Positions 7,667 through 34,874 of a stretch of DNA of 56,737 bases are shown here, in pieces. Numbering within the stretch: position 1 is the stretch's first letter; every line of letters begins with the position of its first letter. The translations under genes and the position numbers were made by a program. The stretch comes from Psammoneis japonica (lineage: Eukaryota): contig QPGO01000028.1 in NCBI GenBank assembly GCA_008632985.1, forward strand, positions 615,598-672,334. Direction: 5' to 3'. Below the pieces are notes generated by a model. It was not told the origin of the DNA, searched no databases, and was given only the letters and a program-made list of their open reading frames with translations.

Positions 7667-8232
7667 GACGTGTTCCAGCCGCACGTGACCCAAATCGTGC
7701 ACAAAAACGACATTTGCGCGATTTTTGCGCGGTCTCTGACTTACGAACGGTTTTTCACCACCAAAAGTATAGATTTATTCAAATTCTAATGTTTTGCAAC
7801 ACTAACAAGACTCGTGTGAGTGTTGCAAAATCATTGTTATTGTGCCATCAATGTTTTTCATTGCGATAAACGAATCGTAACACAACGGATGATTTTCGGC
7901 GAAATTATTGCCGTTATTTGGATGTTAACTAAATATATCTTTCTACGATGGTATTTAGTATATTTGCTACTTACAAAGAAATTTACGTATAAAAAGTACG
8001 GACGTACAATCAGTATTGAGTCTACTGAGGAAGTTTATGATACATATCCCATGAGGAATTTGATACCCCACAAAAAACTATTTAATTCTTCATAATTATT
8101 CACACTCTAGACGCCTATAAAAGCCAATCCGTTTAAGTATTTTATATGAAAATACTTCATACACTAATATATACATGCCTTATATTCAAAATCGATTGTC
8201 GTTTTGTGTGTCACCTGGGACTGGAACACGTC
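7667..8232. mobile_element. Non-autonomous DNA transposon (MITE), 566 bp
   Basis: Perfect 12-bp TIR gacgtgttccag / ctggaacacgtc, extending to 23 bp with 3 mismatches. 4-bp TSD GGAA at 7663-7666 and 8233-8236. AT-rich non-coding interior. Confidence 0.85.
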
Positions 8233-8606
8233 GGAACTCTGTCAAATGATGCATCAATTCAAGAGTCTCTCTTTTTCTTGATGCCAAGCTGTGGTGTGTT
8301 GCCCTTGTTTTTGAGTTGTGTGATAAAAGGGAGTCACCTTGCAGCTTGGGTCTGGCTGGGTGCATGGATTGTCTTGTCACAGGGTGCTCATGTCTTGTGT
8401 TTGTCCTTTTTGGAGGCTGCCAAATTCTCTTGTGAATGACGGTGGCAAATGACAGTGTTGCTCAACTTGGGCTCTGTCATGTGCACTTGGGATTTCTTGG
8501 ACTTTGCAGTGCATGCTTCCCTTTTTTGTTTCCTTGGATCTGATTTCAGCTGCTGATGTCTTCCTTGCCATCTCTGATTTGCCCTTGAAAAAGATGGCAG
8601 CTGTGC

Positions 8607-8882
8607 TGACAGAAATTGAAGGCAAATGGCAAGAATTCAAACAACAACTCCTCACTGCTGTCTAAACAGCAGATGAGTCTCCGCTCAGAGACCGTCACAG
8701 GAGCCGAAAGACGTGTGAGTCGGCACAATCGGGCTACTGTCATCATTCTTGTGAGCCTTGTGGCTCGAAAGCAAACTACATCGCGCGTGAACGCGCGGAA
8801 CTAAAGCACACAAAACTGTGCGCGGTAAACTAAACAGTGCGCGATGCTTCATGCGCATCCAAATCCTGTTCAAATCCTGTCA
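8607..8882 (-). repeat. 3' LTR of family A copy 1
   Basis: Direct repeat of 15444-15719. I count 14 differences, all transitions. Confidence 0.95.
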
Positions 8883-11800
8883 CTCCCCAGTTTGCTTGAG
8901 GAGCCACAGAAACAGATTCGACTTCGGATGGAATGAAGTTCCAGAACATGAGGGGGCGGAGAAGGTCCCAGATTTGGGAGTGACCCCAATGCTTGCTGAG
9001 AATGTCAGCAGGGTTGCGGGAGCCTTCGATGAAGTGGAACTCAAGGTGACCAGAGGCAATTGCCTCACGCACACGGTGGAACGATGGTGTGGTGTGTCGC
9101 TTGTGTAACTTGGAGTGCGGGATGGTGGCACTGTCTACAACCGACTTGTTGTCACCGAACATGTAACCAATGTTACGGATCGGGACGCCAAGGCAGCGCA
9201 GGGTGATGCGCAGGTCGACAATCTGCTCAACACAAGTCCTTGCGGCAACAAATTCAGACCCGCAGGTTGCAGTCTCCACGGTGGCTTGTTTCTTAGAGAA
9301 CCAATCAGCCGGGAATTTGTTGAGGAAGTGGAGCATTCCCATGACAGAGCGTCCGGTGAGCATGCAATGGTGCAAGTTTGCATCGACGCAGTGGGTGGCA
9401 GTGACGAACTTGCCAAGGGGCGGTGGAGCGTCCTTCGGGATCATCTCTTCTGCTTCACCACACACGGAATGCATCCATTCATGGGCCGGAGCAGGGAGAT
9501 CCGAACAGTCGGGCTCTTCCGTGCGAACGCAGAGAGCACCGTGTCGCATCTTGGAGAGGCACCCACAGACGCGTTTGGCACGGTCCAAGTGGCCTTGACG
9601 GGGTGCAGCTCGGAAGCTAGAGAGTGACATGATGGCCGTGGCAATGTCAATTCGACCAAGGGACACTGCCCATTGGAGTGAACCAACAAGAGACTGGAAC
9701 TTGTGAATGCCATCGGGTCCCAGCAGTTCGGAAGTGTCCAGTTCGGGGTGGTCACCCTTCTCCAGAGGTGACAGGGTGTTGGTGGCAGGTTTCTCCCCAA
9801 ACAGTCGGGCATGGCTGTCGACCATGCGCTCGATGTACTTGCGCGGAGACAGGCACAAGGTTCCGTCGGGTTCCCGGGAAAAGTCGCAACCCAGATGGAA
9901 CTCAATGGGTCCCGCACCCTTGAGCTTGAACTTGTGATTTTCCGTGAGAGTGTCGACGAAAGATTGAGGGTCCTTCATGGCAATGGCGAGGTCATCCACA
10001 TAAACGGCAATGCACCCACAGTGGTCGCCGTTCCTGCGCATCCAAATGTCGGGTTCGGCGCGGCAGGGGAAGAAGCCTTCAGCTCGCAGGCAGTCGGCGA
10101 AGCGCTCGTGCCAGCGGAGACCGGAGCTGCGCAGTCCATGCAGTGCCTTGTGGATGACAAGGATGTGTCCTTCGAGTTTGCCGAACTCGGGTCCAGCTAC
10201 AATGTAAAGCTTCTCCTTGGTGGTGGCTTCAAGGCAGGCATTGCCAATGTCGGTGGCCCATGTCTCCAACTCGTTGAGTTCGGCCAGGAAAATCATCAGC
10301 CGAAGGCCACGGAGGGAGACTGCTCCGGAGTGGACACTGTCGACAGGTGCGTCCGTGAGGTGCCTGTCGGCTACGAGTCGTGCCTTGTGGCGACCGTCGT
10401 GTTTCACGTCGTACACTGGGTGCACTCGGATCTTCTTGTGTCCCGCAGGAGGAGTGGAAGACTTGAAGGGCCCGCAGTCATGGAAGACTTCGCATTCGTC
10501 GAGTTGGTCCATCTCGAGATTAGTTGTGTCTCCCCACTTGCGGTTGCCGTTGCGTTCGTCTAGTGACATGGCGTGTTCGTAGTTCCGGGGAACTTCGCAT
10601 CCATGCTTGCAGCGAGGTGCAGTGCGGAAGGAGCGAAGCTTGGCTTGGTTGGCCATGCGAAATAGCTTCTTTTGGCGCCTCGCGATGGTGCGGAACCGCT
10701 TCCAGCCATCCGTGTCGAGGAGTCCGTTCTCTCGTGCATAGATGGCACAGGTGACGGGGTCGTCCTTGGCGATGATGGCAAGAGGCTCGGACGTGATCTC
10801 CCCACTTTCCCATTCAAGCATGATGTTGTAGCTGGAGCCTTTCCAGGTTGGGTCGTGAGGCTTCAGAGGTCCTTCGTGCGACACGATGCGTCGAAATTTC
10901 CAAACAGTGGCATCTTCGTCTTCTTGCTCAATGTGATTCATGATGTCATTGCAGGCAAGGACTTCCTCGTATTCGTCATTGTTGACAGAGCAGACGAACT
11001 CAGTGAGCTCGGGATTGCCGTTCACTTTCCATTCGTGGTCTTCGACGGCCTTGACGATGCGAGCTCTGTGGCGTTGTCCGTCCTCTTGTGGCTGCATGAG
11101 GAAGGTACGTCCAATGATGTCTTGCGGATCGAAAACTGGCATCTTGGGTGTCCTGATCTCCCCATCAGGAGAGTCGACAGGGTTGTCGTCATGGCGAGAT
11201 TTGATGATGGGTTCAGGTGGCTCCCCATCAGGAGGATCAAGACGCAGGTTTCGAGCGGCAGGATCGGGGGTAGCGGAGCGGACGTTGGACCGGCGGAGGA
11301 TCTTCTGAGTCTCGTCAGATAGAATCTTGAAGGTCATCTGGTGGCCGACGTGCTCAGCAATGCCAACGAAGCGCCCACGCAACTCACGGGATTCGGACGG
11401 CCAATCGGAGTCATCGAGGTGGAAGCACACGGGTTCCCACCAATGAAAGCGAAGCAACGGGCTGATGTCCGGGGTGGAGCCAGTGAGAGTCTCGAGGGGC
11501 GTGCGCCAGTGGAGACGTGGGGACGCTGCATGGTTGAGCATGAAGCACACGCACATGAGCACCAGCAGCCATGTGTGGGCGGGCGAACCAAAACGATCCA
11601 TGACAGTGTTCGCCATGCGCTTCACGGTCTGGTGTCGACATTCGGCAAAGTTTTGGTGTTGCTGGTGAGGCTCACTTTGCCAGCTAGAGATGAAGAGGGC
11701 GCGCAGGATCCCGAGCACTTTGTTGCTGATCTCAACTTGAGCACGGTCGCTAATGAGTTTGGATGGGGCACCACGTTCACGGATCTGATCCTCGAGTGTG

Positions 11801-14502
11801 TTGACAAACTCTTTGTCCGTCTCAGTGCCGCAGACGTCAGTGACGGTAGACTCGGTGCCAACAAACAGTTGGGCGCTGGTGCAACCAGAGTCGACGGCCG
11901 GGGTGTCGGCACAAATGGTGTCAGTGGCGACAGGCTCGTTGCGGCGGTGCACATTAAGGGCGGGGTTGGGTGATTTGCAGGCCTTGCGAAGGTGTGTGCC
12001 GGCGGGCATGCGGGCGTACTGCGTGGTGCAGTCAAAAGTACGACGGACCGCATCGGTGGGTAAGAAGCCAAAGCAAGGCCGAAGAGACTCGAAGGGGGGG
12101 TCCTTGGGCTGTGCAGTGCGCTCCGGAGGTGGAACGTCGTCGCCCTGGGGGCCAATCGCATGCAGATGACACTCGTAGAACACGTCGTCGTTCGGAATGA
12201 GGTGATCATCGAGGGCGGACGCGTGATCGGCAGACAAGGAAGCGGACATGATGGTCTCGTTGACAACGACACGATGACGGCAGTTGCCGCATTCGTCAAA
12301 CAGGTTGGCAGTGGGATCGTCCTGCAGGTCAGAGATCGCATCGTGCCACTGGTCGTCGTCAGTGACAGAGTGATCGAGGACGGAAGGGTCCCATGTGTCA
12401 TCACCGGTGAGGATGACATGGGGCAGGGTGTCCCATTCGGCGTCAGTGTAAGGTCGCATGGCAACACAAGGCAGGCCAGCCTTGATGTCAATGGGGATGA
12501 CACAGCCATCAGGAGTGGCAATGCGTTGCAAGCCGTTGGGCACCTTGACAGAGCGATCGTTGACATCCTGTTTGCACCATTCGAGCTGGCCGCAGGAATG
12601 GATGGTCTTGCCCTTTCCCGTGCATGCGCACTGATGGAGGATGGCGATGACGGGACCACGCTGGGTCTCAACAACGGCACCAGCGGTGACAATGGGGATG
12701 TCCACCAATTGATGATTGTCAATGCCCTGAACGTCGACTTGGCGAGAGGTGCGTGCAATGACGCAAACGTCGTCGCCAGCAATGCCGCCGTTGGCCCCAC
12801 GATCGACTAGAGCACCAGTGCGTGTGGAGCGATGAGCAGAGGCAGAGTGAATGACATTGTGGTTGTCAACGCGGCGGCAAGTGCGGCCGTTGAGTTCCAT
12901 GTCATCTGCAGAAGCTGGCGGGGTAGAGGAAGCGGCGGATGGCCCCGGTTGACTGGCATTGTGGGCTTGGTTAGGAGACAACAGACGTTGCAGATCACCG
13001 GGTGGCAGTGGCTTGCGCTTGGTGAGGTGCGCCAGGATGGGATCATCCGAAGTGGCGTCCACATGTGGAGCGGAGTCACCAGAGTCAGCAGGAGTCGTGT
13101 TGGACAAGTTGACATCACCGTCACTCCCAAGGCGTTGGTCGTGAAGGTTGGCCGTAACAGACTCATGGCAGTCACTGGCTCGCGGGTTGCGGGGAGGTGG
13201 ACGACGAGAATGCTCAAGGATGATCGCCTTGGAGGAATCGGGCAACGAATCCCAGAGCTGTTGGTGGTCGGGAGGGAGACGTCTCCATTGGACACCGGTG
13301 AGGCTGGGACCGCGGGTGCAGGCAGCATTGGCCTGAAGGACGTCAACGTCGCTGTCAATGTCGCAGAACACATCGTCGGACGGTTCCTCGGAGTGGACGT
13401 CATGTGCGCACATGGCGCGTCGGGGAGCTCGAGGTGTTGTCTTGGGTTGAAACGTGCTGTCGTGCTGAGCTGCTGCGGAGAGGAGCAAGCCACAGCATTG
13501 ATTGCATGTGAGGCTCTTGCCACTCTGTGCACGATGCTGATCAGCTTGGTTCTTGACAGCACGGAGTTCCTCGACAGGGTGCACGGCATTCTCGAGCATG
13601 ACGCGCTTCTGTCCTTCAGAGAAGTGGTCACTGGCCGGGATGAGTGCCTCGCACTTGCGCAACTGATCTTGCCAATGAAGGATGAACCCGTGGGTCGGAC
13701 CTTTCCAAGTGCCATCACCAAGACGAGCGGTGGTCAGGTGCGTGAGCAGGGTGGAGGACTCGACAGATGCACGGGTGGAGGCAAGCGCGCACTCAGACAA
13801 GGAGCGGCAGACGGTCTGTGCGTCAGAAGACCCCACATTTTCGCGAATGAGAGCCTTGCCCTTGTCGGTGAGAAGGATGCGTTCGAAGACGGCGAACATG
13901 TGCTTTTGCTGTTCAGCAAAGAGCAGTTTGTCTTCGGGGCTGGTCGGTTTGTACGACGAGTCTAGAATGCACTCGACGTCTTGGGCACGGGCTTGTGCCA
14001 CAAGTGAGGTGTGCCAAGTGTGCCACTGCTTGTCGGATTTGAGAGCCGTGAAAGCGGTGGGATCACGCTTGATGCCTCGCTTGAAGTCCCGCACCGGGTC
14101 GCGTGCCTTGGTCGGGTTGGTGACATGTGGAGGTGCAAGGGGTGAGCTGCCGATGGACACAGAAGACATGTGGTCGGGGCTGAGGCGGCAGGCAAGGAAC
14201 TCGTCATGCATGAACAAAGAGGAGTCGTTGGCAACGTCAAGACCTTTGTGTGCTTTGACAATGCACAGACTGACCAGTGCTGCCAACATGTTCTTATAAC
14301 CACGGGGCAAAGGGATTGCATCAGTGCCGTTGTCGCACTCAAGCGAGTCGATTTGGGACGGCATGAACGTGAATGGTTCCTGATGCGAGTCCGTGCCGTC
14401 TTGGGCCAAAGCCAAACGAAGAGGACTCCCAGCACCTTGGGCAAGCACGGTTCCAACCACGTGCTCGAAACCATCGGTTTGTTGCTGACGAGTGAGAACC
14501 AT
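8830..14502 (-). CDS. Copia Gag-Pol polyprotein; frame open but hypermutated, probably non-functional
   Basis: Protease LVDRGANGG; integrase VATDT, LISDRA, SEPHQQHQNFAE; RT KARLVA and YVDD; RNase H DNKS and NPADILSK. Many normally conserved Tyr are Cys or His (DIGNAC, KALHGL, TATCGSE). Confidence 0.93.
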   Translation of the reverse strand: MVLTRQQQTDGFEHVVGTVLAQGAGSPLRLALAQDGTDSHQEPFTFMPSQIDSLECDNGTDAIPLPRGYKNMLAALVSLCIVKAHKGLDVANDSSLFMHDEFLACRLSPDHMSSVSIGSSPLAPPHVTNPTKARDPVRDFKRGIKRDPTAFTALKSDKQWHTWHTSLVAQARAQDVECILDSSYKPTSPEDKLLFAEQQKHMFAVFERILLTDKGKALIRENVGSSDAQTVCRSLSECALASTRASVESSTLLTHLTTARLGDGTWKGPTHGFILHWQDQLRKCEALIPASDHFSEGQKRVMLENAVHPVEELRAVKNQADQHRAQSGKSLTCNQCCGLLLSAAAQHDSTFQPKTTPRAPRRAMCAHDVHSEEPSDDVFCDIDSDVDVLQANAACTRGPSLTGVQWRRLPPDHQQLWDSLPDSSKAIILEHSRRPPPRNPRASDCHESVTANLHDQRLGSDGDVNLSNTTPADSGDSAPHVDATSDDPILAHLTKRKPLPPGDLQRLLSPNQAHNASQPGPSAASSTPPASADDMELNGRTCRRVDNHNVIHSASAHRSTRTGALVDRGANGGIAGDDVCVIARTSRQVDVQGIDNHQLVDIPIVTAGAVVETQRGPVIAILHQCACTGKGKTIHSCGQLEWCKQDVNDRSVKVPNGLQRIATPDGCVIPIDIKAGLPCVAMRPYTDAEWDTLPHVILTGDDTWDPSVLDHSVTDDDQWHDAISDLQDDPTANLFDECGNCRHRVVVNETIMSASLSADHASALDDHLIPNDDVFYECHLHAIGPQGDDVPPPERTAQPKDPPFESLRPCFGFLPTDAVRRTFDCTTQYARMPAGTHLRKACKSPNPALNVHRRNEPVATDTICADTPAVDSGCTSAQLFVGTESTVTDVCGTETDKEFVNTLEDQIRERGAPSKLISDRAQVEISNKVLGILRALFISSWQSEPHQQHQNFAECRHQTVKRMANTVMDRFGSPAHTWLLVLMCVCFMLNHAASPRLHWRTPLETLTGSTPDISPLLRFHWWEPVCFHLDDSDWPSESRELRGRFVGIAEHVGHQMTFKILSDETQKILRRSNVRSATPDPAARNLRLDPPDGEPPEPIIKSRHDDNPVDSPDGEIRTPKMPVFDPQDIIGRTFLMQPQEDGQRHRARIVKAVEDHEWKVNGNPELTEFVCSVNNDEYEEVLACNDIMNHIEQEDEDATVWKFRRIVSHEGPLKPHDPTWKGSSYNIMLEWESGEITSEPLAIIAKDDPVTCAIYARENGLLDTDGWKRFRTIARRQKKLFRMANQAKLRSFRTAPRCKHGCEVPRNYEHAMSLDERNGNRKWGDTTNLEMDQLDECEVFHDCGPFKSSTPPAGHKKIRVHPVYDVKHDGRHKARLVADRHLTDAPVDSVHSGAVSLRGLRLMIFLAELNELETWATDIGNACLEATTKEKLYIVAGPEFGKLEGHILVIHKALHGLRSSGLRWHERFADCLRAEGFFPCRAEPDIWMRRNGDHCGCIAVYVDDLAIAMKDPQSFVDTLTENHKFKLKGAGPIEFHLGCDFSREPDGTLCLSPRKYIERMVDSHARLFGEKPATNTLSPLEKGDHPELDTSELLGPDGIHKFQSLVGSLQWAVSLGRIDIATAIMSLSSFRAAPRQGHLDRAKRVCGCLSKMRHGALCVRTEEPDCSDLPAPAHEWMHSVCGEAEEMIPKDAPPPLGKFVTATHCVDANLHHCMLTGRSVMGMLHFLNKFPADWFSKKQATVETATCGSEFVAARTCVEQIVDLRITLRCLGVPIRNIGYMFGDNKSVVDSATIPHSKLHKRHTTPSFHRVREAIASGHLEFHFIEGSRNPADILSKHWGHSQIWDLLRPLMFWNFIPSEVESVSVAPQANWGVTGFEQDLDAHEASRTV

Positions 14503-15443
14503 GGTGGACAAAAGTGGTGTCAGGACAGTCAATTCTGGTTGGGAAGAGAAGGTAGACTCGAAACTTGGGTGAGAGTGGACTTGACTTGAAATGGACTTGA
14601 CTTGAAATCTTGAACCATCTTAAAATCAGAAGTCGCCGGGCTTTGTCATCCCGTTCGTTGTCAAGTGCTAAACTTCCCATCCGGTCCGTAGAGTTGTGCC
14701 GGCACGTCCGAACCCGCAGCTGGCGGCGCTTTGGGTTGCTTGCGAGCGGAGCAGCGGGTTGTAAACCCCTGCAGGCAAGCTGACCAGAGGTGGACAAGAC
14801 CCCCGAACCGTTCTTATTTTGTGTCGGTTGGATTTCCCGATCAGGCTGGCCAGTTGACGCTGGCGTCAGGCGCTGTGGACGAACGAACAAACGTGGGAAA
14901 GCACCCTCGCCCCAACGCAGGCTGCAATCACGGCTGCTTGCTCTCACAGTTGTCCTCGTGGACCTAGCAGAACTGTAGAGCACCAGCAGTCCGGGGTAGA
15001 TCAGGTACAATGGACTCGGTGTGCCTGTAGAGTGGTGGCAAAACCGCAGTCCGAAGAGTGGGTACAGGTTCTTGGCCGTGAAGATATGTATATATATATA
15101 TATGTCTTCAGCGACGAAGATCCTTGAATATGTAGGGTTCTTGACCGTTAACCGATGAATGGGTATATCAAGGGATGAGGATCAAGGATAGACTTGGATA
15201 TGACCGTTGAATGTATGTCTTCAGCGGTCAAAGGTAGTATAATCAATCCAGATATCCAGCGGTAAGGAGACTTGACGGTGACGTTAACTTCCTGCCGATG
15301 CCCTGGTGTCGAATGCGCGTAGACTTGCCGATGTATGTAGAACATATACGGAGGTCCACGTAGAATTGAAATAGCGTCGTTGGTAAATCAACGACGACGA
15401 TGGCGGTTGCTCAATGGGTTGACAATGAGCAAGACTGTTAATC

Positions 15444-15719
15444 TGACAGAAATTGAAGGCAAATGGCAAGAATTCAAACAATAACTCCTTGCTGCTGTCT
15501 AAACAGCAGATGAGTCTCCGCTCAGAGACCGTTGCAGGAGCCGAAAGACGTGTGAGTCGGTACAATCGGGCCACTGTTGCCACTCTTGTGAGCCTTGTGG
15601 CTCGAAAGCAAACTACATCGCGCGTGAACGCGCGGAACTAAAGCACACAAAACTGTGCGCGGTAAACTAAACAGCGCGCGATGCTTCGCGCGCATCCAAA
15701 TCCTGTTCAAATCCTGTCA
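15444..15719 (-). repeat. 5' LTR of family A copy 1
   Basis: Direct repeat of 8607-8882 and inverted match to 54535-54810. Confidence 0.95.
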
Positions 15720-16788
15720 TGTGCGGCGCTGTGCTGTGAGAGATCTTTCTGCTGGTGTGGTCATCTGTGAGGACACACAAGCCACACCCACGCTGTTTGC
15801 ACTTTCCAACTAGATTGTTTTCCTTTGTGCTGGACACAAGCTCTCATGATCTGGTGTTCCTCCCTTGGTTCTCCACAGCAGCTGCTGGTGGTGGCAGCAT
15901 GTGCAACCTGATGAGTCAGCCTCCAGTGCAGAAGAAACTTGACAGTTTCAAAAAAAAAGAAGCTCAGCCAGGTGGGGGGCATTGAGTGGTGGATGGATGG
16001 CATGTGGGAGGTGGTGGGGGTGTTCTCAATGCTGGCAGTTGTTGCAGTGCCAGCAGGTGCAAATTTGGGCAGCTGCCGAACACAGATCCCCGCGCAATTG
16101 TTTTGGGGCTCCTGGATGAGAAACCTCCTTGGGTGGAAGAGTGCTTGATGTGATTTTGTCAGTGATGAGGTCACTGCTCCTGTGCATGACCCTGCACCAC
16201 TTGGAGCAGCGGGTGCATCTCACAGCCAAGTTTTGCAATTTTTCTTTTGGGCTTGTTGTGAGCAAAAACAAGTGCGCCACAACGAGCAACTTGCACGCGC
16301 CTCTCTCCTTCCTTGTTGGTGCTGTTGCAGATTGCAAATCTGTGGCACTTTCACCCTTTTTGCCTCACTGCCCCCCACCTGACCCATCATGTCAGCCAAG
16401 AACTGTCCTTTCCAGCTTGTCCGTGGCGGGAGGGAAGGGTCGGCAAGCAACCCGCAAAGAGAGAGAGGTTGCCGTGCTGCTGCTGCCCTCGCTTCTTCCA
16501 TTGATCCAGATGGAAACAAATCATCTTCAGTTGAAGTTATAAAGTTATGTTCTGTGGACCCTGAAACGAAAACGTTCTTGCTCTCATTCAGTGTCAACTC
16601 TTTCCTTCAAAGAGACTGAAGTTTGGGCCATCAAAAACAAAAGATTTCATTGAAGTCGTGTGAGTCGACTCGAATGACTCCGACTCACAGGACTAACCAA
16701 CGACGTCGCCGAGTTCCAAGTTATTTCGCTTTGACGCATAAAGAAGCCATGACAGTGACAGCGGTGCGCATCCCGTTTTTGTTTCACC

Positions 16789-18356
16789 ATGGCTAAAAAT
16801 AACAGCACTGCCAACGCGGCCACTAGTCCTACGTCGGGAGGAGAAGAAGAATTTCATACAGGCCGCAACATAACGTTGGAAACAAATCAAGCGCAGGAAA
16901 ACGAAGAAGAACAACCACAAGAAGAAATCAAGTTGTATAAGTCGACTCGTCTCAAGGGTTACTTTACACTCTGTCTGGCCAGTTCCCTGAATTATGTGGC
17001 TGCCTATCAAAGCAACGACGTCATTTTAGCCAATGCTGTGCCCGCCACTACGTCTCAACGCCGCTATGCTCAAGCCGCGAGTATGGTGTCGATTTTGCTC
17101 TCCTTCTTTGCCGTGTTGGTGCATCTAGATCGCTATTCTCCGCTGCAACGCATATGGATCAAGGCGTTTCGACCCAAAGCCTTGTTTGAGTTATGCTTTG
17201 TTTTGGTGCTTTGTGTGTGGTGGTGTGTCGCGACGTAAGTAGTCTCTCCCCGCTGGCGTTCGGTAACGGAGCCTATTGTAACAGTTGAATGCGTTGCCTT
17301 CTTCTCTGGTATTCTTGTCTTCCTCACTTTTTATTCTGCATTGGCTTTTTTTATAAAGGTGGGTGCAAACGTCCGTTGAAGGCATTGCTGGAGACGGCAA
17401 GGGGCAATTCAATCTGTACTTTAGCACGTGGGCGTGTTTTCTCACCAGTGTATGGACCCTGGATCGATGGCTTGTGGCCAAGGGCATGTCGTCCTTCAAA
17501 GCGTTCCTGGCGAGTTGGCCGAATCGAGCACCTGGATGTAAGTTCTCGTTTGACTCGAACACTCTTGCCCATTTCTAAAAAGTCTCACAAGGATTCTGCC
17601 TCTATTGCATCATTAGGGATTGCGATTTTCATCTTTTCCTTTGCCTGTTTCTTATCCGTGTTGGATCTCTTTCTGAATTGGGAAGACGCCAGTAAGCAGT
17701 CACAGGAAGCCTTGGTGATTCGAGATATTTATGAAGACGTTCCAAGCAGCCAATGGAATTGGCTGTTAACGTCGAGTGCCTTGACTCTCCCGTTTGCCGC
17801 CGCCTTTGTCTTGGTGGAGCTCTTTCGCAAGAATGCCGGTGGCGACCAACACGGCAAGACAGAAGTGGAGATTATTGTCGAGGGCGCCGTGTTGGGCATC
17901 CTTGTCTTGTTTTGGAGTGCTTCCGTCATTGTCGCCACCACACCAGGAGGTGCTTGCAGTCAAGTGGGCAACGCGTACTTTTTCACGTGGCTGTCCACCA
18001 TCTTTGTCATTGAAACGTCAGTCTGGTGGATTCATGATTGGAGAAAGAGCATCCATCAAAAGATTCAAGAGCAAGAAGACGAATACAAGAAGATTCAAGA
18101 AGAGGTCCTGTCAAAAGCTCATGGCGATAAGGATGAAGGCACGAAAAAGAAAGCTGTAGCTCCAACACCAAGCGCACCGCAGGAATCTCCGCCAGAAGAA
18201 GCAGACAAGCAAGTCAAATTTGCAGCGTCGCGGGATGAGAAAGATGTTGTTGTGGATGTACCGTCGGACGATGAGGATTCTGATTCGTCGGAAGAGGAAG
18301 ATGACAAAGAAGAGGACGATTATGAAGGTGTCATTCCAGATGTTATTGGGACTTAG
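16789..18356 (+). CDS. Spliced multi-pass membrane protein with acidic C-terminal tail
   Basis: Exons ~16789-17234, ~17359-17537 and ~17617-18356 with GTAAGT donors. Internally repeated N-x-YF-x-TW helices (NLYFSTW, NAYFFTW). Confidence 0.8.
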
Positions 18357-20359: not shown

Positions 20360-23300
20360 CTGCTTGTGTCGACTTTTCGAAATTGCTCTGTTCTTCTTCT
20401 TCTCGTCATGCCCCGATTCTTTTCAACAGAAGGATCATCTGGTGACACTTGCTTCTCTCTGTCTGTGAACCAAGGAGCATCAGTAGGATAATCTACCCAA
20501 CCGACAGAGGTCGAAAGCTCTGGGTCCTCATTGCTGCCCTTGTTAATCTGCTCTCGTCCCATCGACATCTAGGTGAATGTAACAAACTGTTAGCCCTTCG
20601 CAATGTATTGACATGAGAAACTGTGAGTTGCACTGGATGACTGATGACTGATGCTTGCCTTATGTTTGTTCGACGCTTGCGTTTCTGCTTCTTCATCCAC
20701 CTTTTTACCATTGCTTTGTTCGCTGTTGCGCACATGGCTTCCATGCGTTTCACCGTTGTCGTGCTCAGTGGGATTCATCATGGTTTTGGAAGTTTGACGC
20801 GATGATGCTATCATGAGTTTCGGAAATGCGAAATTGAAAATGCGACAGGACCAAGTATGTCTCAGACGTAGGATCCTACGCATCCGCGATCTCTGTCTTG
20901 TGAGTGAAAACGAGAACTCTGGGGCGGGAGAGTGCCTTGTCGGACGGTCTCCATCTTCTTCCGTACCACTTACAGACCTCCCAGTTGGGAGTTGACGGTC
21001 TCGTGCTTTCTCGTCAACAAGATGTAGATCAGCTTTTCTCGTTTCCATCACGGACGCGAAATTTGTGCAACTTTCATGTAACACCTCTTGGCGTTTTTGA
21101 ATCTTTTGCGTGTTGTCTCGTTGGTTGTTAGATGTTCAGTCGTGATGCGATTGATCTGCTGCGTTCCCACACTGACGCTGTGTGGCACCTGTTGGCCCTC
21201 AAATGCCCCTGGTGTTGTGTTTGCAGCTTTTGTTTTTTGTTGCACAGATGTTCAAGGTTCAATGAGGATCCCTTCATTGTGGGAGCTTGAGAAAGGTTGA
21301 GTTCATTGGATGTGGACCCAACTGGTGTGCCCATCCACTTTGCGCGGAAAATCAAAAAAGAGTGTGTGCTTGGATGTTCTTTCCCTGGTCGATCTTGGAG
21401 ACCCAACAAAACAAGGGAATCTCTTGGTTGCAAATCTTGTCATGGTGTCCTGTTAATGCCATTGCACTGGAAACAAAGCTGCTGACCCCACGCTGTCTTG
21501 AACCAACATTGCTGCCCCCCCAGACACCGCCGCTTTGTTTGGAAAAAAGTTGGCTGGCCCTGCCTGTTTTAATGCCATTGTGGAAACCATTGGAGAGGGC
21601 ACTGAAGTTGGCCAATCTGCCCAAAGTGTGCCAGCTTCCCCCATGAAGCAAGTGCACTTCTCACCAAAGCATCAGAAAAGAGTTTCCAAACAACAACTTT
21701 TGGACAACTTCCAAGTGATTTCTGACACAACCCTCCTGTTCTCCGTGCCGGTGCACCCCAGAATCCAAAAACATTCACCAAAAAGAAAGCAAACCCAGAC
21801 CACAGCTTCTGATCAAAAGGCCAGTGCTGCAGCTGAGAAGTCCAGTCAAGCATGCTGGCAAGAACATTTGAGCTCCATGGACCATTCTTGTTCAGAACCT
21901 GGATTTTTCTGTCCCTGTTGATGCTGCAAATGGCGCTTCCATTGTGGTGCTGCCAACTGGGTCCTTGCAGATCCTGACACCAAAAATCTCAGGTGCTTCA
22001 CCTCAAACAACACTGCACCAACATGTCAAAACATTGCACTTTGTCTCAACCTGACCCAGGCAACCTGGAAGTGATGCAACACAAAGCACTGCAAATTGCT
22101 CCAGGAGGAGCAAGATGCTTGAGTGCCACATCAATGTTTTCTGTCATTTCTGTGCCAATTTCCAGCAACTGCAGTGCAAATTGTTCACTTTGTCAGAGCC
22201 AACAACTTTTTTTTGAAAACCCAGATGGGTGATGGAGAGTCAATGCAATGGCATCATCACTCCATTTGATCAATGGCAGCTCTCACAGCCAATGCACAGT
22301 TGTCAACGTGGCTGGGAGTCCTCGTCCAATGTGTTGACAAGACCATTGAAACCTCAAGTTGGCTGTTGGACTTGGAAATCATTGCAAAAGCTTGTTGACC
22401 ATGCCAGAGAGAGCACTCAATTGTGTTGAGCACTTCTGGCAGATGGTGGATGGCATTGCAAAGCAAAGCTGCAAGTGCAAAGACTTGTTGTTTGGCTCTT
22501 TTGGGTGCTCTTGAACACCTCCTTGGGCTGGTGCATTGGGTGCAACAGAGCTCATGGGACCCTTGGCTGGGGGCATTGCATCCCAAAGTTTTTTTCAGTG
22601 GCATGTCCAGGAGATGATCAAAGACTCTGCTGTCTCCTGCTGTTCCTGATGTGGCAGAGCAATGCCTCTTGGTGACAAGAAGACAGGATGAGTGGCATCA
22701 GAAGCCACTTGTTGCTCAAGTTTGTGTCACAAAAGGTTGTTTGCAGTGATGCACCCCCATGATGAGATTGGTGCTGATGAGTGCCAAGTTGGGCAGAACA
22801 ACCACATGGTTGACCGCTCCAGCTTGGAACTTGGAATTGGAGTTTGCAGCTCTCTAAGATGTTGGACAACAGCAATGGCACTGAGGACAGAATGGGTGAT
22901 TGTTGCTTTTTGATTTGTGATTGGGGTCAATTGGAAGTTTCAAACAGAGTCACAGATGATGGTGTTTTGAGTCTCAAGTGGCGGTGCAGTTTGGTCATGA
23001 TCCATGACCAAGTGAACCATGGCCGCTCAACAACCCATTAGAGTTTGCCTGCATTGTTGAGCCATTGCAGCATTCAAAGTGATTTCAAGATCATCATCTT
23101 TCCAGGTCATGCCAAGGGTTGTGATGACTGCCCCATCATTTTGCTCCGGCAGTGTCAAACACCAACCTTTTTGTCATCGTGACCCCAACAGCCCTTCTTC
23201 ACCCACACCACAACAAGTGCAAAAAATTCCATGCACAAGCTTTGGAGCTGGGTGCAGAGCTTGTGACAAGACAAACATGCCACATGTGAGAAATCAACTG

Positions 23301-25719
23301 CAGCAAGCTTTGCCACTTTTAAGAGCATTGCCGTGCAAATGAGGATGGGATTGTCAAGCTCAGATGGGTGAGCAATTGTTGTTGTGAAGCTTTTGCAACA
23401 GAATGTGTCAGCTTCTTACCTGTTTCCTTTGTTGGTTCACACCAGGAGGTGTCGTCTGGACCTGTTCACAATGGACACATTGAGAGGACAAAGAGAAAGG
23501 GCCTGCAAATTTAGGCTGCCTGCACTCAACAAGCTCATCAAGATGTTCAAGAGGTGTGGCTGTGCTCTTGACTTTGCTCTCTCAAGCTTGTCAACAATGC
23601 TGCTGAAGAAGGCAGTGCTTTGAGTGCAGCACAAATTTTTGAAGTTGTTGTGGCTGCTGTGTGGCTTGCACTGGCTGATTTTTTGTTTTGTGCAAGACCA
23701 CATCATGGAATCCTGCTCAACACATGGAAGAAAAAAACCTGTGGCACCACTGGAGATTGACATGATTGTCAACAATGTGCCATGTGGTGTCTCAGTCAGC
23801 ACCCAATCTCATGCAATCACCAGGGAGGCAACCTGCAAGCAGAGGCCCATCTGCCTTGTCACTGCTGGTTCTGACCTTTGGCAGATTCTCACTCCTCAAG
23901 GGGAGTGCCCCCACTTTCTTGGCTTGCCTGCAAGCAGAGGCCTGCCTTTCTCATTGCTGCTGGCTCCAACCTGGAAGATTCTCACTCCTCAAGGGGGGGT
24001 TCAGCCTCTGCCATTTCAGCTTGTGTTTTGTCTAAAATGCCTGTGTGATTTTGCAGACATTGGCAAACAATGACCTCTGAAAGCAGCACCTTGCCCACAC
24101 CTCATGCCAACTGTTGAGCACCAACATTGTGTGTGTTCACTCTCTTGCATTGCATGGCAATGTTTGCACAAGTGGACCCAAATGGTTCACAAAGAAAGAA
24201 AATTGGAGATGATTTTTGTTCTGCAACTGCCAGCAGATTTCTTTGCTTTCCCTGTGACAACAACATTGTCACTCTTGCTTGTGACATGACAAAGACATGT
24301 TGCATGTGTGCAAAAACAACAGAGAAGATCAACACAGTTCAGCACCAAAATGAAAAAATTGCAATGCCACATTTTTGCAAGAAATGTTTTCCCAGCAAGT
24401 GCAGCACAATCAACTGCCACCCACATCTTCCAAGAGTGCAAGAGATGCTGCTTTGAATTGGGCCCTCCACAAACACAATGTGGCCATGACCAACTGGAGG
24501 GCTGTTGAGTGATTGTCACTCTCCTGACCTCCTCCCACACTGTGAGGGACATGTCTGAGGAAATCCTGGAGAAAAAGAATTTACAATGATGGGCAAAGTG
24601 AGAGAACCATTGTGCATCAATGTGACTCTGAACAACGTTCAATGTGCCACACCCAATTGGCAAATGCTTTTGTGGATCATTCCCCAGGCAGACAAACAAG
24701 AAGTCATGGCATGCAAGAAGTGGCCAGTTTGGTGCATTGGGGTTGTCCAAATGGCAGTTGCTGATGCCCTGGAGAAAAGAAAACAAGCAACATGATGAGA
24801 GCTCTGCATCCACCAAAAACAGTGGGAAGCAAAAGGAGAGAAACAACTTGCAAGCAAACAAGAATGAAAAGCATTCAGTGCAGCTCTTAGCATGATGAGT
24901 GTCCACAGCATCCTTTTGGACCATGTGCGGCACCTCTGAATTGCACGCCACACATTTCCACAAAGCACTGAACTGGGTTGTCAAAAAATGACCCACATGG
25001 CAATTGCTTCATTTGTGGACCTTGGAAACACTGACACTTCACAAGTCTTTTTATCTTGTGTTCTGAGTTTTTTGTGGAATTTCTCCACCTTTCCCATGTG
25101 CACTCCATGAGAAAAGGAAAAGCAACAGAGGCAGCACAAGCATTGTGGACACATCACAGAAGGCTGTTGGAAAACCAGTGGCAGCATTGATGTGTGCTTC
25201 TCAGATGTCCTCACCCCACCACACAATGGCTCTGTTGAGCCTCTTTGTCTTGTGTCTTGAGGTTTTTTGTTGTGGTTCTTTGCCCTGCCTCTGAGTGCTC
25301 TGTGCTCTCCATGAGAAAAACAAAAAGCAACAGAGCACAAGCACAACCTGGGTGCATCATGATGGCGCTGGCAGACACGCACCATTTTGTTCTCCAAAAT
25401 GATGTGGGGCACCCACAAACTTTTGATGTGTGTCTGATCCTTGGTGCACAAAAGGGTGAATGTGAAACAAACAAGAGTTTGTGGACAGAGGACACCACCC
25501 TCCGCTGGACTCACCTGAATCGTCCAAAGTTGCCATGGTTGCCATGTTGCAAGTGTGGCGAAAATTTTTCAGCAGAATGTTGCGAGCTGTTGTTTTGGCT
25601 AAATTTGAGCCAAAAAAGTGGCAACCAACCCCCTGTAAAATTTCCAACAGCAGCTGTTTCCTGCGAAGTTTGATTTGTGACAAAGGAGTCTAGAATTTTT
25701 GTGACAGCCGGAATCCGGC

Positions 25720-26200
25720 ATGGCACCAGAGCTGCATCGACATGGCACTGCGGACGCTGTCACCATGGTGGATCAAGAGGTTGCAGCTGCTGACACAATG
25801 CTTTCTGCTTGTAAAATGGCATTGGAGTCCACAAGTGAGTGGAGGTCTCTTAAGCCAAGATTCCTGCAAGTGCAATCCTTCAAGCAAATGATTGACAACA
25901 ACGCAGTTTTGGGGGTTCCTCCGTCCCTTTGGCGTGAGAAACATGCCCTCACTCCAATCATAAAATCGTTGGAACATTGCAATGATGCTGGGGCAGTGTC
26001 GGTGGCAATGGTGCCAGCATCAATGGGGAAGATGACAGAAGCGAAGTTCTTCTTGCATGAGAACAAAGAGCAAGTTCAAGGGATTGCAATTTGTTGCACC
26101 GGTCAGCAATCGCACGACTCGTGAATGTGTGCGGCTGATGTGCAGATGCAGGTGGAGCAATCAAAGCACGGGGCAAATCCGGAGCCCGGAAGCTCGCCGA
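25720..26200 (+). pseudogene. Degenerate fragment of a possible P-loop NTPase gene
   Basis: VSVAMVPASMGK(M)T resembles a Walker A after a beta-strand. The frame is broken. Confidence 0.3.
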
Positions 26201-26575: not shown

Positions 26576-26932
26576 TGTGGGATTCTACCTGGGGTGCAGG
26601 TCCCACCTGTAGAATGTGCTGCTGACAATCAGCACAAGGTGCTAAAAGCCAGTAAAACAGCAATGAGTTGTCTTGCCAACTCGTGCTCAGTTGAAATTGT
26701 GGGCTAAAACCAATCTAAAAGTGAATCTCTCATTTTGTGATCTGAAAGATCTTGGACAATGCCACGTCAGAAAACAGACATTCTTCGAATGTCACTCACG
26801 TAGAATGTGTGCCAAGAGTCACGGCGTAAGTTCGTCACTTGAATTGTCCTTTCCGATGTCCAACTCAGCCGCGTGGAAATTCCAAGAAGATTGGACGTCC
26901 TGAGATGTCCACAGTCATGCTAAATTGTCACA
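26576..26932 (-). repeat. 3' LTR of family B element
   Basis: TG...CA direct repeat of 32354-32710. Confidence 0.93.
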
Positions 26933-27780
26933 CTCCCTTTGAAAGTGTCGGGTGAAGCTGTGACTTGATCTAAAATCACCACTTGAGCAGCTTCTTTTGA
27001 AGGCGAACAAATGTGTTTTGAGGCACTGGCTTGGTCTCCATGTCTGCAATTTGTTCAGTGGTGTCAATGGGCAGAATGGAAATGATTCCCTTCCTGACAT
27101 GTTCCTTGAAATGATGTGGTGCCAGATTGAAATGCTTGGTTCTTGGTCTCATCTTGGGCAGTCTTGCAATTTCCAATGCACCTGAATTGTCCTCGGGTGC
27201 CTTGCAATGAACCAAAGGAGTCTTGGATGGCACCTTGTGTCCATGCTCTTGAAATTCCTTGATCAAATTGATGACAGGAGTGGCGCTTCGGAGGCTCTCG
27301 GATGGAGTGACATGTTCGGCTTCTGTCGCACTTAGCGCGATTTGTGTTTGAAGCTTAGATGTCCAAACAACAGGGCAGTCTGCGCAGGCAATGACGTGCC
27401 CTGTCCTGGACTTTGAAGTGCCAATGTCACAAGGGGCAGTCATTTTGTTCCAATTGCCTGCGAAGTCGGCATCGGCACAAACTTCCAATGACTTGTCTTC
27501 CATTGGGTCCAGAATGATGCCTTCATGTCTGGTTGCTCGCAAGCACTCACAGAGCCACAGTGCTGCTTCACCGTGTGATCGTTTGGGGTCACTTGAAAAT
27601 CGCGCGACTTGATGCACAGCGCATGCGATGTCGGGTCGAGTGCTCTTTTCCAGAAAATTCAATTTGCCGATGACGCTGCGACAGTCGAAGGACCCGTCAA
27701 AAGATTCTTCGTTCTCATGTCGATGTGGCATCTTTGAAGATGCTGCTGGAGTCTGCTTGTCCGGTGGACGGGTTCCAATC

Positions 27781-28148
27781 CTAGGTGGGACTTTTTGTGA
27801 CATTGGGCGCGTAGAATTCTACGTGCGAGCTCCGTAGTAAAATCATTAAGCAATGAAAATATGAATGATCGCTGACAGAAATAGAGGCAATTTTACGAAC
27901 GTATCTCCTCCTCCAAATTTGAAGTACGTTATTTATAGTTTGCCCGGGTATATTCTTTAGACATTAAAGAATATACCCAGCGCATTTTTATTGTCATAAA
28001 TGTAGAAAACAGAAAGCCTTTGGCTTCGCAAAAGAGGCAGTGTGGAACAATTTTTTACAATACAACACGTAGAAATGTACGTGCAAAACATACGACGGAT
28101 GACAAAAAATAATTATGTCACAGTCCAGCAGTGCGAGGTCCCACCTAG
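27781..28148. mobile_element. MITE (368 bp including terminal CTAGs) nested in the copia pol gene
   Basis: Perfect 11-bp inverted ends CTAGGTGGGAC / GTCCCACCTAG plus subterminal tgtgaca / tgtcaca. Collapsing to one CTAG restores the pol frame (PTRSSSR-IGTRPPDKQTPA), implying a TA or CTAG target duplication. Confidence 0.8.
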
Positions 28149-31100
28149 AGCTGGAACGCGTCGGTGCACGACGAGGCAAGTTCACCATTTCGAGCATTTG
28201 CTTGATCATTTGTGGTTGCGTCAGTTTCATTCTGCCATCAGGTGGTGTTTCGATGTTGACACCGAGGTGGTCGTCAACATTTCCTTGATCATCGATGTCG
28301 AAGTTCGAGCTGCGGATGTCTTCGATCGCCTTGTCAACAGCACCCTTGTCCAGTGATGCAAACATGCCATCATCGACGCAATGCACGAAAATGACATTTC
28401 CTTGATGACAAAGGCATTTGTCGACTTTTGATTGTTCAAATCCGATTCTCAACAATCCTTCTCGCAAGTGCTCACCCCATGCTCTCCCTGCTTGTTTCTG
28501 TCCATGCAGGTTCTTGAGCAATTTCAACACATGGGTTCTGCCATTGCCGCACTTGGTTTCGATGCCTTTTGGCAGCTCCACGCACATGTCAAATTCGATG
28601 TCGGCATGAGGACAGGCAAGAACGAAGTCGACTTGGCGAGTGTGCCATCCGTTCAGAACGGATGGCATGAGTGGAAACCGCGCAGTGTTCCAATTGACAA
28701 CTGCCGCATGAGTCTGAAAACAATTGACTGCATGCTCTTGTTTTCCACCGTGCACATTGAGCCTTGACTTGTGCTTGTGCACTTTTCTTGTCTTGATGTC
28801 TCTTTTTCTCTTCACAGACCATGCCGCTGGGAGAATGTCGACTCCCTCTGGAACTTCTTTGACAGGAATCAGTTTCCAGTGTTTGCGTTCAATGTGATCG
28901 TTGACTTCCTTGATGCAAGCCTTGACAAACTCGTCTCAGTCTGGTTCATTCACAGCTTGATCAAAATGCATGGCATCTGGGTCGGTTCTGGCTAAGAAGG
29001 TGAAAGGTGAGTCCATGTCGTGTTGCATCTTGCAGTCGTCCTCGTGCATTGCATCGCAGCACTCGCAATGGGTCGACAGATGCGACACGATGCCGGTGGC
29101 TTGTTGTTGTTGGCTTTCGATCATTTGTTGCGTTGGTTTGCGCACTCTGCCAGCCCTGCTGACACTTGGTTGTTCTGGTGCCGTCTCTTGAGAGTCTTCA
29201 GGTGTCGTGTCTTCTGCTGATTCGGGCGTCTCGTCTTCAGTCATGGGGAGCTGCTCATCTTCGAGTTGTTGTGGAATGTTGGGTTCCGGTGTCGAAGTGT
29301 TCTGCACTGGCGCAGCGGAGCAAGGCTCCCTTGCTTCCCTTTGTGGCTTGAAGATGTTGAATCTCGATGCTCCTTGCTTCTTGAGTCCTGATGCGGTTTG
29401 CCATTGCGAGAATGTAGGTGCATTTCCTGCGGAAGGGCGTGCCGTCTCGAAGAAGTCATCGAATTGAACATGAAATTGCGGAGAGGTGAGTCCAGTCTCA
29501 AGGTTGAGCACTGAATTGACTGATCCAGCGTGTCTCGGAGATGGTCCCAAGTTGATTCCTAACCTTGCTCTTGATTGCCACTTGGGCACTCTCTGTCCAC
29601 TCTGCAGTCGGTTGTCAAGCGCATAGACGGGGCATCAGAAAGTGTGGTGTTGCTTGAGATTTGGAGCGACCTTGACGGAGGCGAATCGTTCGATTGGGGA
29701 GCTGCCATCTTCGTGGTCAGGTAAGTTGTTCTTGAGCTCATTTGAATTGCGCAGCGCACTTGGCCAGAGATTGATCTCAACAGCCGTTGACCATCTTGCT
29801 TTCGCATGTAGCAGCTGTTTGCGAGTCTGTTCTTGCAGGTCGCGGACTCGCTTTTCGGCAATGCCGTTTTGGAAGTGGGCATTGACGCCACAGTGCGATG
29901 TGGTTTGTCCTTGTTTCTCAACGTCTTGCATGAAAGTGTTGTCAGAAAATTGTCTGTTGTCGGCATGGCGGTGTTTGATTTGGACATGATGTCATCTCGC
30001 AAAGGCTTCGAAAGCATGTTTGGCTTTCAGGGTTTCCTCGGAGGCAAGTGATCGTTGCAGGAACACGTGTCCAAGTTTGGAGTGGTGATCGACAAACACT
30101 GTTGCTGCTCTGCATTGCTGTTTTGCAGGTCTCCCTTTGAGTTGAGGGACAAAGCCTGGGGTCGAGCTTTCGAGCTGATCTGCCGATGTGACCTCCCCTG
30201 GCTTTGCAGCGATGTGCATGTTCGACTTGCGTCTGGATTTGGCACGCCAAGGGTGTTTGGTCATGGCGCCATAGAGGCAGCTGGATGTCGACAACCACGC
30301 AACCTGCACAATGTTGAACGACAGATCACACTTTGTTGGTGACCTGCGTCCTGCAAACAAATGGATCAAGGGAGCAGGCAGATGGTTGGACGCAGAAGGA
30401 GAGGGCACACTCAAGTGGTGCATCGAGGACGATGACGACGACGGACAGGTGCACACGATCACCACACACGACGCACTGCACGTTCCCAACTTACCCATTT
30501 GCCTCCTCTGCCCTCAGCAATGGAGCCAACAAGCTCAGGATCGTTGTCCTGAACCACACGGAACGACTTCCTGGAACCGAGACGACAGACTCCTGCTCAT
30601 GTGGGATCAAAGGAAGCACACAAGGCTGGTCCCTCTTCTTCTCTGGCAGGTTGAGCATCGCAAACACTGTGAGCACCAACAGTGGAGCCATGGTGTCTAC
30701 GAAGCTCGTGGTGACTGGGGCAATTGTGGACGCGACAAGAACTGCCTTCATGCAGAATGCCCATGTCCGGAGCGCCTTCCGGACCAGTCATTCCTTGGAC
30801 TCGAGATCCTCGATGATTGAGGCCAGAGCGTTGGCACAGGAAACTTTCTTGTTGGAGTCTTTCGTTCTGCTTTCGGATTCTTGAGCTTTGCGAAGTCGAC
30901 AACCTTTGTCTCCCAAATCATCAGGCAAGTGAGCCACCCAAGCAGAGTGGCACTTGCACCAATGATGGTCGCGTCCCTTTTGACTCTTGTGATGACACTT
31001 GTGCCCGTTGACAGTCTTCGTAGGGTCACTGTCCTTTGGCGGAGTCTTCTTCCAGGCTTCGTCCTGTTTCTTGGCGCGTTTCGGGTTCTTGCTTTTGTTC

Positions 31101-31255
31101 TTGGAGTTCTGCTTGCTGCCACCTCCCTTGGACTTGCTGGGACCACTCTTGAGAGCCTTGGAGAGCTTGAGGTTGTGATCCTTGATGGTCTCGACTTCTG
31201 TGGCAAGTGCAACAATCCTTTCCTGCTCAGGAGAGAGTGCTCCCCACTTGTCTGC

Positions 31256-32281: not shown

Positions 32282-32353
32282 TGTTGGATGGTTTGGGTCT
32301 CGATCAACAGCTGGCTTGAAATTGAAGTTGCGAAGCAGGTCGCAGAGGAAGCG

Positions 32354-34802: not shown

Positions 34803-34874
34803 ATGTTCCTTGTGAAGACACCTGCCTCATGTTGAAGGCTTTTTGAGAGCAGCAAGTGGCAAGTGCCATCTTTT

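Follow-up and report, generated by a model that had tools for sequence, protein, structure and literature searches.

The window analysed here, the whole stretch of 56,737 nt, contains two copies of one Ty1/copia LTR retrotransposon, copy 1 on the minus strand and copy 2 on the plus strand. A preliminary description had reported that part of the 5' leader of copy 1 keeps its TA dinucleotides although the ORF and the LTRs around it are converted. This was borne out by dinucleotide counts, since the TA observed/expected ratio (o/e) is 1.09 in this leader patch versus 0.16 in the ORF and 0.36-0.43 in the LTRs. The locus therefore raises the question of how one part of an element escaped a change that rewrote the rest, and which of the two states came first.

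The element and its leader patch

Copy 1 possesses direct LTRs of the TG...CA type (ends TGACAG...CTGTCA), a 5-bp TSD, a purine tract and a match to the Pfam domain RVT_2 (E = 3.4e-24) in a single gag-pol frame, as is expected for Ty1/copia. The protein of this frame, P0001, has 1398 homologs, and residue 1 of one of these, P0004, aligns at 14502, at the gag start. The features of both copies are as follows.

8602-8606, no strand: left TSD, TGTGC, identical to 15720-15724
8607-15719, minus strand: copy 1; LTRs of 276 bases that are 95% identical, TSD, one gag-pol frame
8607-8882, minus strand: 3' LTR of copy 1, with the purine tract GGGGAG ahead of it in element sense; 6 TA, o/e 0.36 (computed on 8606-8882)
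8830-14532, minus strand: gag-pol frame of copy 1 (P0001); open, 1900 codons, TA-depleted, most conserved Tyr lost
14503-15443, minus strand: complete 5' leader of copy 1; its 941 bases separate the 5' LTR from the start codon of gag
14960-15443, minus strand: TA-retaining patch, first half of the copy 1 leader; 32 versus 0 sites, TA o/e 1.09, RNA fold z -4.25
15084-15103, no strand: (TA)n tract capping a 59-base hairpin (15066-15124); TRF period 2, 10 copies; DNA fold z -2.85
15444-15719, minus strand: 5' LTR of copy 1, 95% identity with the 3' LTR; 7 TA, o/e 0.43
15720-15724, no strand: right TSD, TGTGC, a perfect match to the left copy
54535-56737, plus strand: copy 2, truncated by the window end
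54535-54811, plus strand: 5' LTR of copy 2, 91% identity with the copy 1 LTRs; 3 TA, o/e 0.18
54812-55293, plus strand: converted counterpart of the patch in copy 2; 5 TA, o/e 0.19; CA 1.65, TG 1.60; RNA fold z -3.62
55151-55166, plus strand: converted (TA)n remnant of copy 2, placed by alignment; a 7-bp stem still forms
55759-56737, plus strand: start of copy 2 gag-pol, by tblastn with P0004 (residues 1-320); truncated by the window end

In the copy 1 frame, no integrase or protease domain was detected below the Pfam E-value cut-off of 0.001, and a tRNA-type primer-binding site was not recognised by eye in copy 1. A search of 14400-15800 against Rfam returned a sub-threshold chance match only (21.9 bits versus a cut-off of 75). 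When further copies were sought in the window, tblastn with P0004 returned copies 1 and 2 only. The top protein matches of P0001, P0002 and P0003, were considered as close copies and rejected, as they are nested or duplicated RT fragments with 45-54% identity.

For the comparison of the two copies, the reverse strand of copy 1 was globally aligned with copy 2 (2194 aligned columns). Identity is 92.3%, the 159 differing columns fall into 124 groups, and almost all differences are transitions among TA, TG, CA and CG. Within the patch, TA in copy 1 faces TG or CA in copy 2 at 32 sites and the reverse is found at none, while 4 TA are common to both copies and 3 sites are CA/TG swaps. By hand count, the 32 sites and the 3 swaps make up 38 of the 46 differing columns of the patch, so that the changes are mostly confined to TpA. 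The other 1710 aligned bases hold 9 TA in copy 1 only, 3 in copy 2 only, 8 shared TA and 21 swaps. Retained and converted sites of copy 1 accordingly number 36/3 in the patch versus 17/24 outside (Fisher p = 1.1e-6). In copy 1 the patch has an unbiased composition (37 TA, o/e 1.09; CA 0.94; TG 1.17); its counterpart in copy 2 has a dinucleotide skew like that of all repeats in the window, and the copy 1 ORF holds just 40 TA in 5703 bases. The run of retained TA extends from 15483 to 14966, starting 40 bases inside the LTR and fading gradually towards gag. Among the visible sites of copy 1, TA is retained at 92% in the patch, at 55-58% in the 5' LTR and the remaining leader and at 22% in the ORF; in copy 2 retention is uniformly low (10-33%). 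The converted sites of the copy 2 patch became TG in 18 cases and CA in 14. All 26 CpG that the copies share in the patch are intact, and a C-to-T excess in other contexts is absent.

The finer claims of the preliminary description agree with this alignment. Between 15181 and 15300, 8 of the 9 TA sites of copy 1 are TG or CA in copy 2 and the survivor, at 15286, lies in TTAA; exactly two further differences occur, at 15274 and 15227. As had been claimed, GATTATACTACC in copy 1 corresponds to GATCACACCACC in copy 2, and the (TA)n tract, which spans 15084-15103, faces GTGTGCATGTGTGCAC in copy 2, with a length difference of 2 bases. The leader folds better than 100 of 100 shuffles in both copies (z -4.25 in copy 1, -3.62 in copy 2). 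The hairpin with the (TA)n cap is present in both (15066-15124, 59 bases, and 55130-55186). In copy 2, the 5' arm carries TG and the 3' arm CA in 3 of 3 paired units, an arrangement that may be due to chance (1 in 8). Folded as DNA, the hairpin of copy 2 is the more stable one (-13.2 versus -7.9 kcal/mol in copy 1) and the 7-bp stem survives.

Several other repeats were noted in the window. The stretches 21500-26000, 34000-38000, 48500-50500 and 52750-54000 have a TA o/e of 0.00-0.10, a CG o/e of 0.06-0.31 and CA+TG of 1.6-2.0, which suggests old repeats where the editing of TpA and the decay of CpG are both complete; Pfam searches with two ORFs from these stretches gave no matches. A second copia-type element lies on the minus strand at 26576-32711, with LTRs of 358 bases that are 90% identical and RVT_2 at 27994-28935. 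Its interior is TA-depleted (3 TA in the 850 bases beside the 5' LTR), and its LTRs retain 9-10 TA each. The ORF of this second element carries an insert of ~360 bases (27800-28160, minus strand) with normal TA and an 11-base terminal inverted repeat (CTAGGTGGGAC / GTCCCACCTAG), which looks like a MITE-like, unconverted insertion, either recent or too short for targeting. Just outside the 3' LTR of copy 1, an AT-rich island with 51 TA in 500 bases (7751-8250) is located between TA-depleted stretches. Tandem arrays are formed by six 171-base units (33739-34874), in a TA- and CG-free stretch, and by three 138-base units (51924-52336).

Direction of the change and mutational process

The preliminary description regarded the patch as the cleanest polarity evidence in the window. 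This part of its claim did not hold, because two copies give no direction and because saturating C-to-T change also makes a perfect (TA)n from an alternating pyrimidine-purine tract; the patch alone is thus insufficient. The polarity that it had proposed, with TA ancestral and TG/CA derived, stood, and is based here on protein comparisons, a host-gene control and other copies of the family. An outgroup for the leader is lacking, since neither a leader motif nor an LTR motif was matched in exact-pattern scans of metagenome contigs (0 matches).

Among 121 proteins, P0001 is the sole outlier in residue content. Compared with 95 homologs of more than 1700 aa, its Tyr content is 0.74% versus a median of 3.76% (minimum 2.86), its Cys content 3.11% versus a median of 0.94% (maximum 1.41) and its His content 4.89% versus 3.54%. 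At the 38 columns where at least 80% of 45 aligned homologs have Tyr, P0001 has Cys in 20, His in 10, Tyr in 5, Phe in 2 and Trp in 1. Conserved Cys (6 of 6) and His (29 of 30) are kept in the same alignment. The replacement of conserved Tyr by Cys and His means that TAY codons became TGY and CAY. The CA/TG swap sites of the ORF lead in the same direction where they are informative, that is, at the 5 sites where at least 25 of 45 homologs agree. At 4 of these the majority residue (Leu, Leu, Tyr, Val) is encoded by a TA codon and a CG codon does not fit; however, the remaining site, 13642, fits a CG ancestor better. At position 13740, copy 1 has His and copy 2 has Tyr, as do 45 of 45 homologs. 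In the LTR, the swap site 15554 is TA at 75% of the depth in contigs of other copies (among the variants listed, 40 of 302). The host FKBP gene in the window, used as a control, has a Tyr content of 3.48% versus a homolog median of 3.22%, and five host-like ORFs have a TA o/e of 0.46-0.63 versus 0.16 in the element ORF. Taken together, TA is very probably the ancestral state and TG/CA the derived one, which identifies a TpA-to-TpG/CpA hypermutation.

What the patch escaped was, in all likelihood, a hypermutation at the DNA level that is symmetric between the strands and changes A:T to G:C at 5'-TA-3' on either of them. Most TpA sites of the copy 1 ORF and LTRs would have been changed by it, as would ~90% of those in the stretch of copy 2 that corresponds to the patch. 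The occurrence of both TG and CA outcomes shows that neither strand was spared, and this speaks against RNA or single-stranded cDNA as the edited molecule. The two LTRs of copy 1 differ at 14 of 277 positions, including 3 CA/TG swaps and 3 TA/TG sites; 4 post-insertion conversions were assigned to the 5' LTR and 5 to the 3' LTR, with converted and retained sites interleaved. Because these differences include TA-derived sites and both LTRs belong to a single insertion flanked by a TSD, we infer that conversion continued after insertion, in integrated DNA. In the one window examined, the process is restricted to the element and host genes are spared. Although the protein is ruined, the frame of 1900 codons is still open, because A:T-to-G:C transitions cannot create stops. 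A model with a gradient of cDNA editing was also considered, and was rejected because both strands were hit.

The abundance of CA/TG swaps is explained by the same process, because swaps are expected when TA sites common to two copies are converted independently and to near saturation. Over the alignment, 24 swaps, 129 shared CpG and 28 single CG-versus-TG/CA differences were counted, and the excess of swaps relative to singles agrees with the prediction of near-saturated TA conversion. Uniform CpG decay was rejected as the source of the swaps, as it predicts ~150 single CG-versus-TG/CA differences by a rough hand estimate that assumes ~27 swaps and ~100 conserved CpG, where 28 were observed. 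CpG decay nevertheless acts too: Arg has become Cys at 3 conserved columns, and CG-to-TG/CA changes private to copy 1 occur at 9531, 9777, 10365 and 11916 (against contigs of other copies, among the variants listed). With a CG o/e of 0.82-1.07 in both copies, this decay is slower there than the loss of TpA.

Two observations on the spectrum of changes were made in addition. In the ORF (8830-14532), Tyr-to-Cys replacements outnumber Tyr-to-His replacements by 30 versus 15 when compared with the homolog P0004 (binomial p = 0.036), while the copy 2 patch, which is non-coding, has balanced outcomes; selection or a transcription-linked strand bias may be responsible. A/G differences outside TpA occur at 15583 and 15580 (LTR columns 137 and 140), with G in the 5' LTR alone, and at 15227, where all other copies have A (among the variants listed). 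These may be due to off-target editing or to ordinary mutation.

The patch in other copies and its escape

Contigs from four public runs (X1-X4) of one sample and one study, probably the assembly's own, were compared with the window over 8883-17000. In the deep run X1, summed depth is ~49,000-140,000 on the element versus ~61-77 on the unique flank, though this depth is not a copy number. In the low-coverage runs X2-X4 the unique flank is not covered at all (zero depth), but contigs over the patch are present. These differ from copy 1 by 2 letters (15038-15293, X3), 16 letters (14817-15382) and 14 letters (14816-15438), while copy 2 differs from copy 1 by 50 letters in 14817-15382; the comparison of the patch with other copies is based on difference counts of whole contigs. 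Since runs that do not cover single-copy DNA reproduce the TA-rich leader, this leader is a multi-copy form of the family and is not unique to the copy 1 locus, nor is it a single-locus event or a chimera introduced by polishing. The polished-in chimeric consensus that the preliminary description had named as a refutation is contradicted by the raw-read contigs 14816-15438 and 15038-15293, which carry the TA-rich sequence. ORF contigs from the low-coverage runs are also only about 0.7-4% different from copy 1, and much of the ORF conversion therefore seems to be common to many copies. At some positions copy 1 is unlike the family majority: 9085-9086 and 12057-12058 are TG in copy 1 and CA in ~97-100% of other copies, and 10183, 10578, 11295 and 12139 are CG in copy 1 and CA or TG in 90-100% (both among the variants listed). 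Such states imply subfamilies, so that the majority state is not always ancestral to copy 1. In the LTR bin 15387-15657 the summed X1 depth is 437,090 versus 49,000-140,000 in internal bins; with the reservation that depth is not a copy number, LTR sequence seems to be several times commoner than internal sequence, perhaps as solo LTRs.

Why, then, did the patch escape? Tentatively, and as a possibility rather than a settled answer, we favour survivorship, in which the cis-acting signals of the leader are kept, together with editing in place that is uneven. The leader would be TA-rich family-wide because it holds cis-acting signals, such as the primer-binding region and a structured packaging leader. 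If this lineage was copied with proteins supplied in trans, the signals of the leader would have to persist while the ORF was free to decay. The ORFs of the source elements may already have been ruined when they were copied, and new insertions would then begin with a TA-rich leader and a TA-poor ORF. Later editing in place would be uneven, so that the copy 2 leader was hit and that of copy 1 not yet. Survivorship alone is insufficient, because within this one insertion the LTRs are converted to a greater extent than the patch (converted versus retained sites 9/13 and 3/36; Fisher p = 0.005), and local shielding, later gene conversion or chance is also needed. Two further points speak against it: the LTRs are also cis-acting, yet they are TA-poor, and a spared leader was looked for in the second copia family of the window (26576-32711) and is absent there.

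Several alternatives to survivorship with uneven editing were weighed. Open or transcribed chromatin near the promoter, bound factors or DNA structure might have kept editing off the leader at the copy 1 locus. The peak of TA retention in the copy 1 leader, with lower values in the flanks and lowest in the ORF against the uniformly low retention of copy 2, is in line with such shielding, as is the deficit of conversions in the patch relative to the LTRs of the same insertion. However, the 5' LTR, which bears the promoter, received as many post-insertion conversions as the 3' LTR (4 and 5), without a sign of protection at the promoter end, and a leader that is TA-rich in many copies is not a feature of one locus; shielding of the locus as the whole explanation is thus unlikely. 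Alternatively, the leader of copy 1 or of its source could have been replaced from an unconverted copy, either by ectopic gene conversion or by template switching between co-packaged RNAs during reverse transcription. Donors are plentiful in a family this abundant (judged by the summed depth given above, which does not give a copy number), an abundant form found in X3 is near-identical to the copy 1 leader (2 differences in 256 bases), and the mosaic states elsewhere hint at subfamilies. Against such a repair, an unconverted, Tyr-rich copy was not seen, the other two leader contigs are 14-16 letters off in ~600 and thus no closer than the ORF contigs, and the 3' boundary of the patch is gradual, not sharp. 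We regard it, by either route, as quite unlikely. Editing might also come in bursts that cover parts of repeats, the copy 1 leader merely having been missed so far. According to a preprint on Bigelowiella natans, hypermutation there occurred in some lines only and in variable numbers (Mettrop et al., bioRxiv 10.64898/2026.01.13.699255), and 7 consecutive CA outcomes in the copy 2 patch hint at strand-coordinated clusters. The runs of TG and CA are nevertheless not significantly clustered (13 versus ~16.8 expected, hand calculation), the copy 1 LTR has converted sites in between retained ones, and luck at a single locus does not account for a TA-rich leader in many copies, which makes chance patchiness very unlikely.

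The remaining alternatives concern the observation itself. If copy 2 were ancestral, the copy 1 leader would have gained TA by RIP-like C-to-T change at CpA/TpG. The pairwise pattern is indeed symmetric, a perfect (TA)n would also result from saturating C-to-T, and the TpA/ApT ratio of the patch, 0.86, is near the usual RIP threshold. But the direction in the ORF is from TA to TG/CA, the shared CpG of the patch are intact without C-to-T excess in other contexts, and the host is a diatom, not a fungus; moreover, the ancestor would need an extreme CA/TG excess and a coincidental return of every dinucleotide to ~1.0. This opposite polarity is extremely improbable. Hardly more credible is an artefact of assembly or polishing, in the form of a chimeric consensus or of modified bases miscalled as TG/CA. 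Assemblies are prone to error in repeats and the reads all come from one sample; yet the same raw-read contigs join the TA-rich sequence to the TA-poor stretch below 14960, and an X1 contig (15720-17000) links the LTR end to the unique flank with 2 other letters. Independent strand-flip errors would leave many TA and create CG, whereas both are near zero in those repeats that are converted most.

Relation to known systems and implications

Repeat-induced point mutation, or RIP, in ascomycete fungi changes C to T at CpA (or CpG) in duplicated DNA, raises TpA and creates stop codons. The process described here resembles it in that repeats undergo dinucleotide-specific transitions on both strands, with destruction of coding capacity and a strong dinucleotide skew. 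Its direction is the mirror image, however: TpA is removed and stops cannot be made, so that the C-to-T change and TpA gain typical of RIP are opposite to the polarity found in the element. The host is also not a fungus, as the named relatives of the FKBP gene in the window are diatoms only (Fistulifera, Epithemia, Seminavis, Skeletonema; 41-53% identity). APOBEC3 and ADAR enzymes have RNA or single-stranded cDNA as substrates and leave their marks on a single strand, and ADAR favours a U ahead of the A that it edits. Editing of the deaminase type that targets retroelements and prefers a certain 5' neighbour is common to these systems and to the element; here, in contrast, both strands are affected about equally (TG 18, CA 14) and the LTRs of a single insertion diverged after integration, which differs from one-strand editing before integration. 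CpG decay, the deamination of 5-methylcytosine in methylated repeats, likewise ends in TpG/CpA. It is present here too (Arg to Cys; CG o/e 0.06-0.3 in the oldest repeats), but it cannot account for the loss of TA or for Tyr to Cys/His, and CpG is still at 0.82-1.07 in both copies.

The closest parallel is found in B. natans. As reported in the preprint, TpA-to-TpG/CpA is the only type of hypermutation in this organism, nearly all changes gained by mutation-accumulation lines in the integrated DNA of giant viruses and virophages are of this kind, and reverse-transcriptase domains are enriched among TpA-depleted CDS; an ADAT2-like, DNA-acting adenine deaminase was put forward as a conjecture for the enzyme (Mettrop et al., bioRxiv 10.64898/2026.01.13.699255). 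Both systems share an almost exclusive A:T-to-G:C change at TpA, with TpG or CpA as the product according to the strand and with TpA depletion and CpA/TpG excess, and in both foreign or selfish DNA is targeted and host genes are spared; genomic DNA is edited in place there and probably here too. They differ in several respects. The host there is a chlorarachniophyte and here a probable diatom (a stramenopile), and the targets are single-copy giant-virus and virophage inserts there and a very high-copy LTR retrotransposon here. TA o/e is 0.45 there, whereas here it is 0.16 in the element ORF and down to ~0.01 in older repeats, near saturation and accompanied by CpG decay. De novo mutations were recorded in cultured lines there, while the process described here is deduced from sequence comparison; a spared leader patch is seen here, and none is described in the portion of the B. 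natans preprint consulted. In our literature searches, a report of TpA-to-TpG/CpA hypermutation in diatoms was not found, and the B. natans preprint was the only source on this type.

In summary, this study describes a TpA-removing hypermutation signature at saturation on a very high-copy retrotransposon of a probable diatom, a signature that, going by our literature searches, was known before from one chlorarachniophyte. It is tempting to speculate, although we hold this to be rather doubtful, that diatoms defend their genomes by targeted DNA editing, with A-to-G change at TpA on both strands of repeats, as a mirror image of RIP and distinct from methylation decay. Such a defence would be targeted below the level of the element, with the structured leader actively excluded, and might be shared or convergent between stramenopiles and rhizarians. 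If this is true, spared patches would be footprints of how the machinery is guided, be it by chromatin, small RNA or DNA structure. With the same signature in diatom retrotransposons, the process would reach a second supergroup of eukaryotes and would include retrotransposons among its targets. Reading frames that are open but dead, as stops cannot arise, would find an explanation, as would Cys/His-rich, Tyr-poor "proteins" in diatom annotations. For genome annotation, TA-free and stop-poor repeats will mislead repeat finders and gene callers. Natural internal controls would, in turn, be provided by spared patches and by copies that were edited independently, and from these the polarity, rate and targeting rules of the process could be read without experiments.
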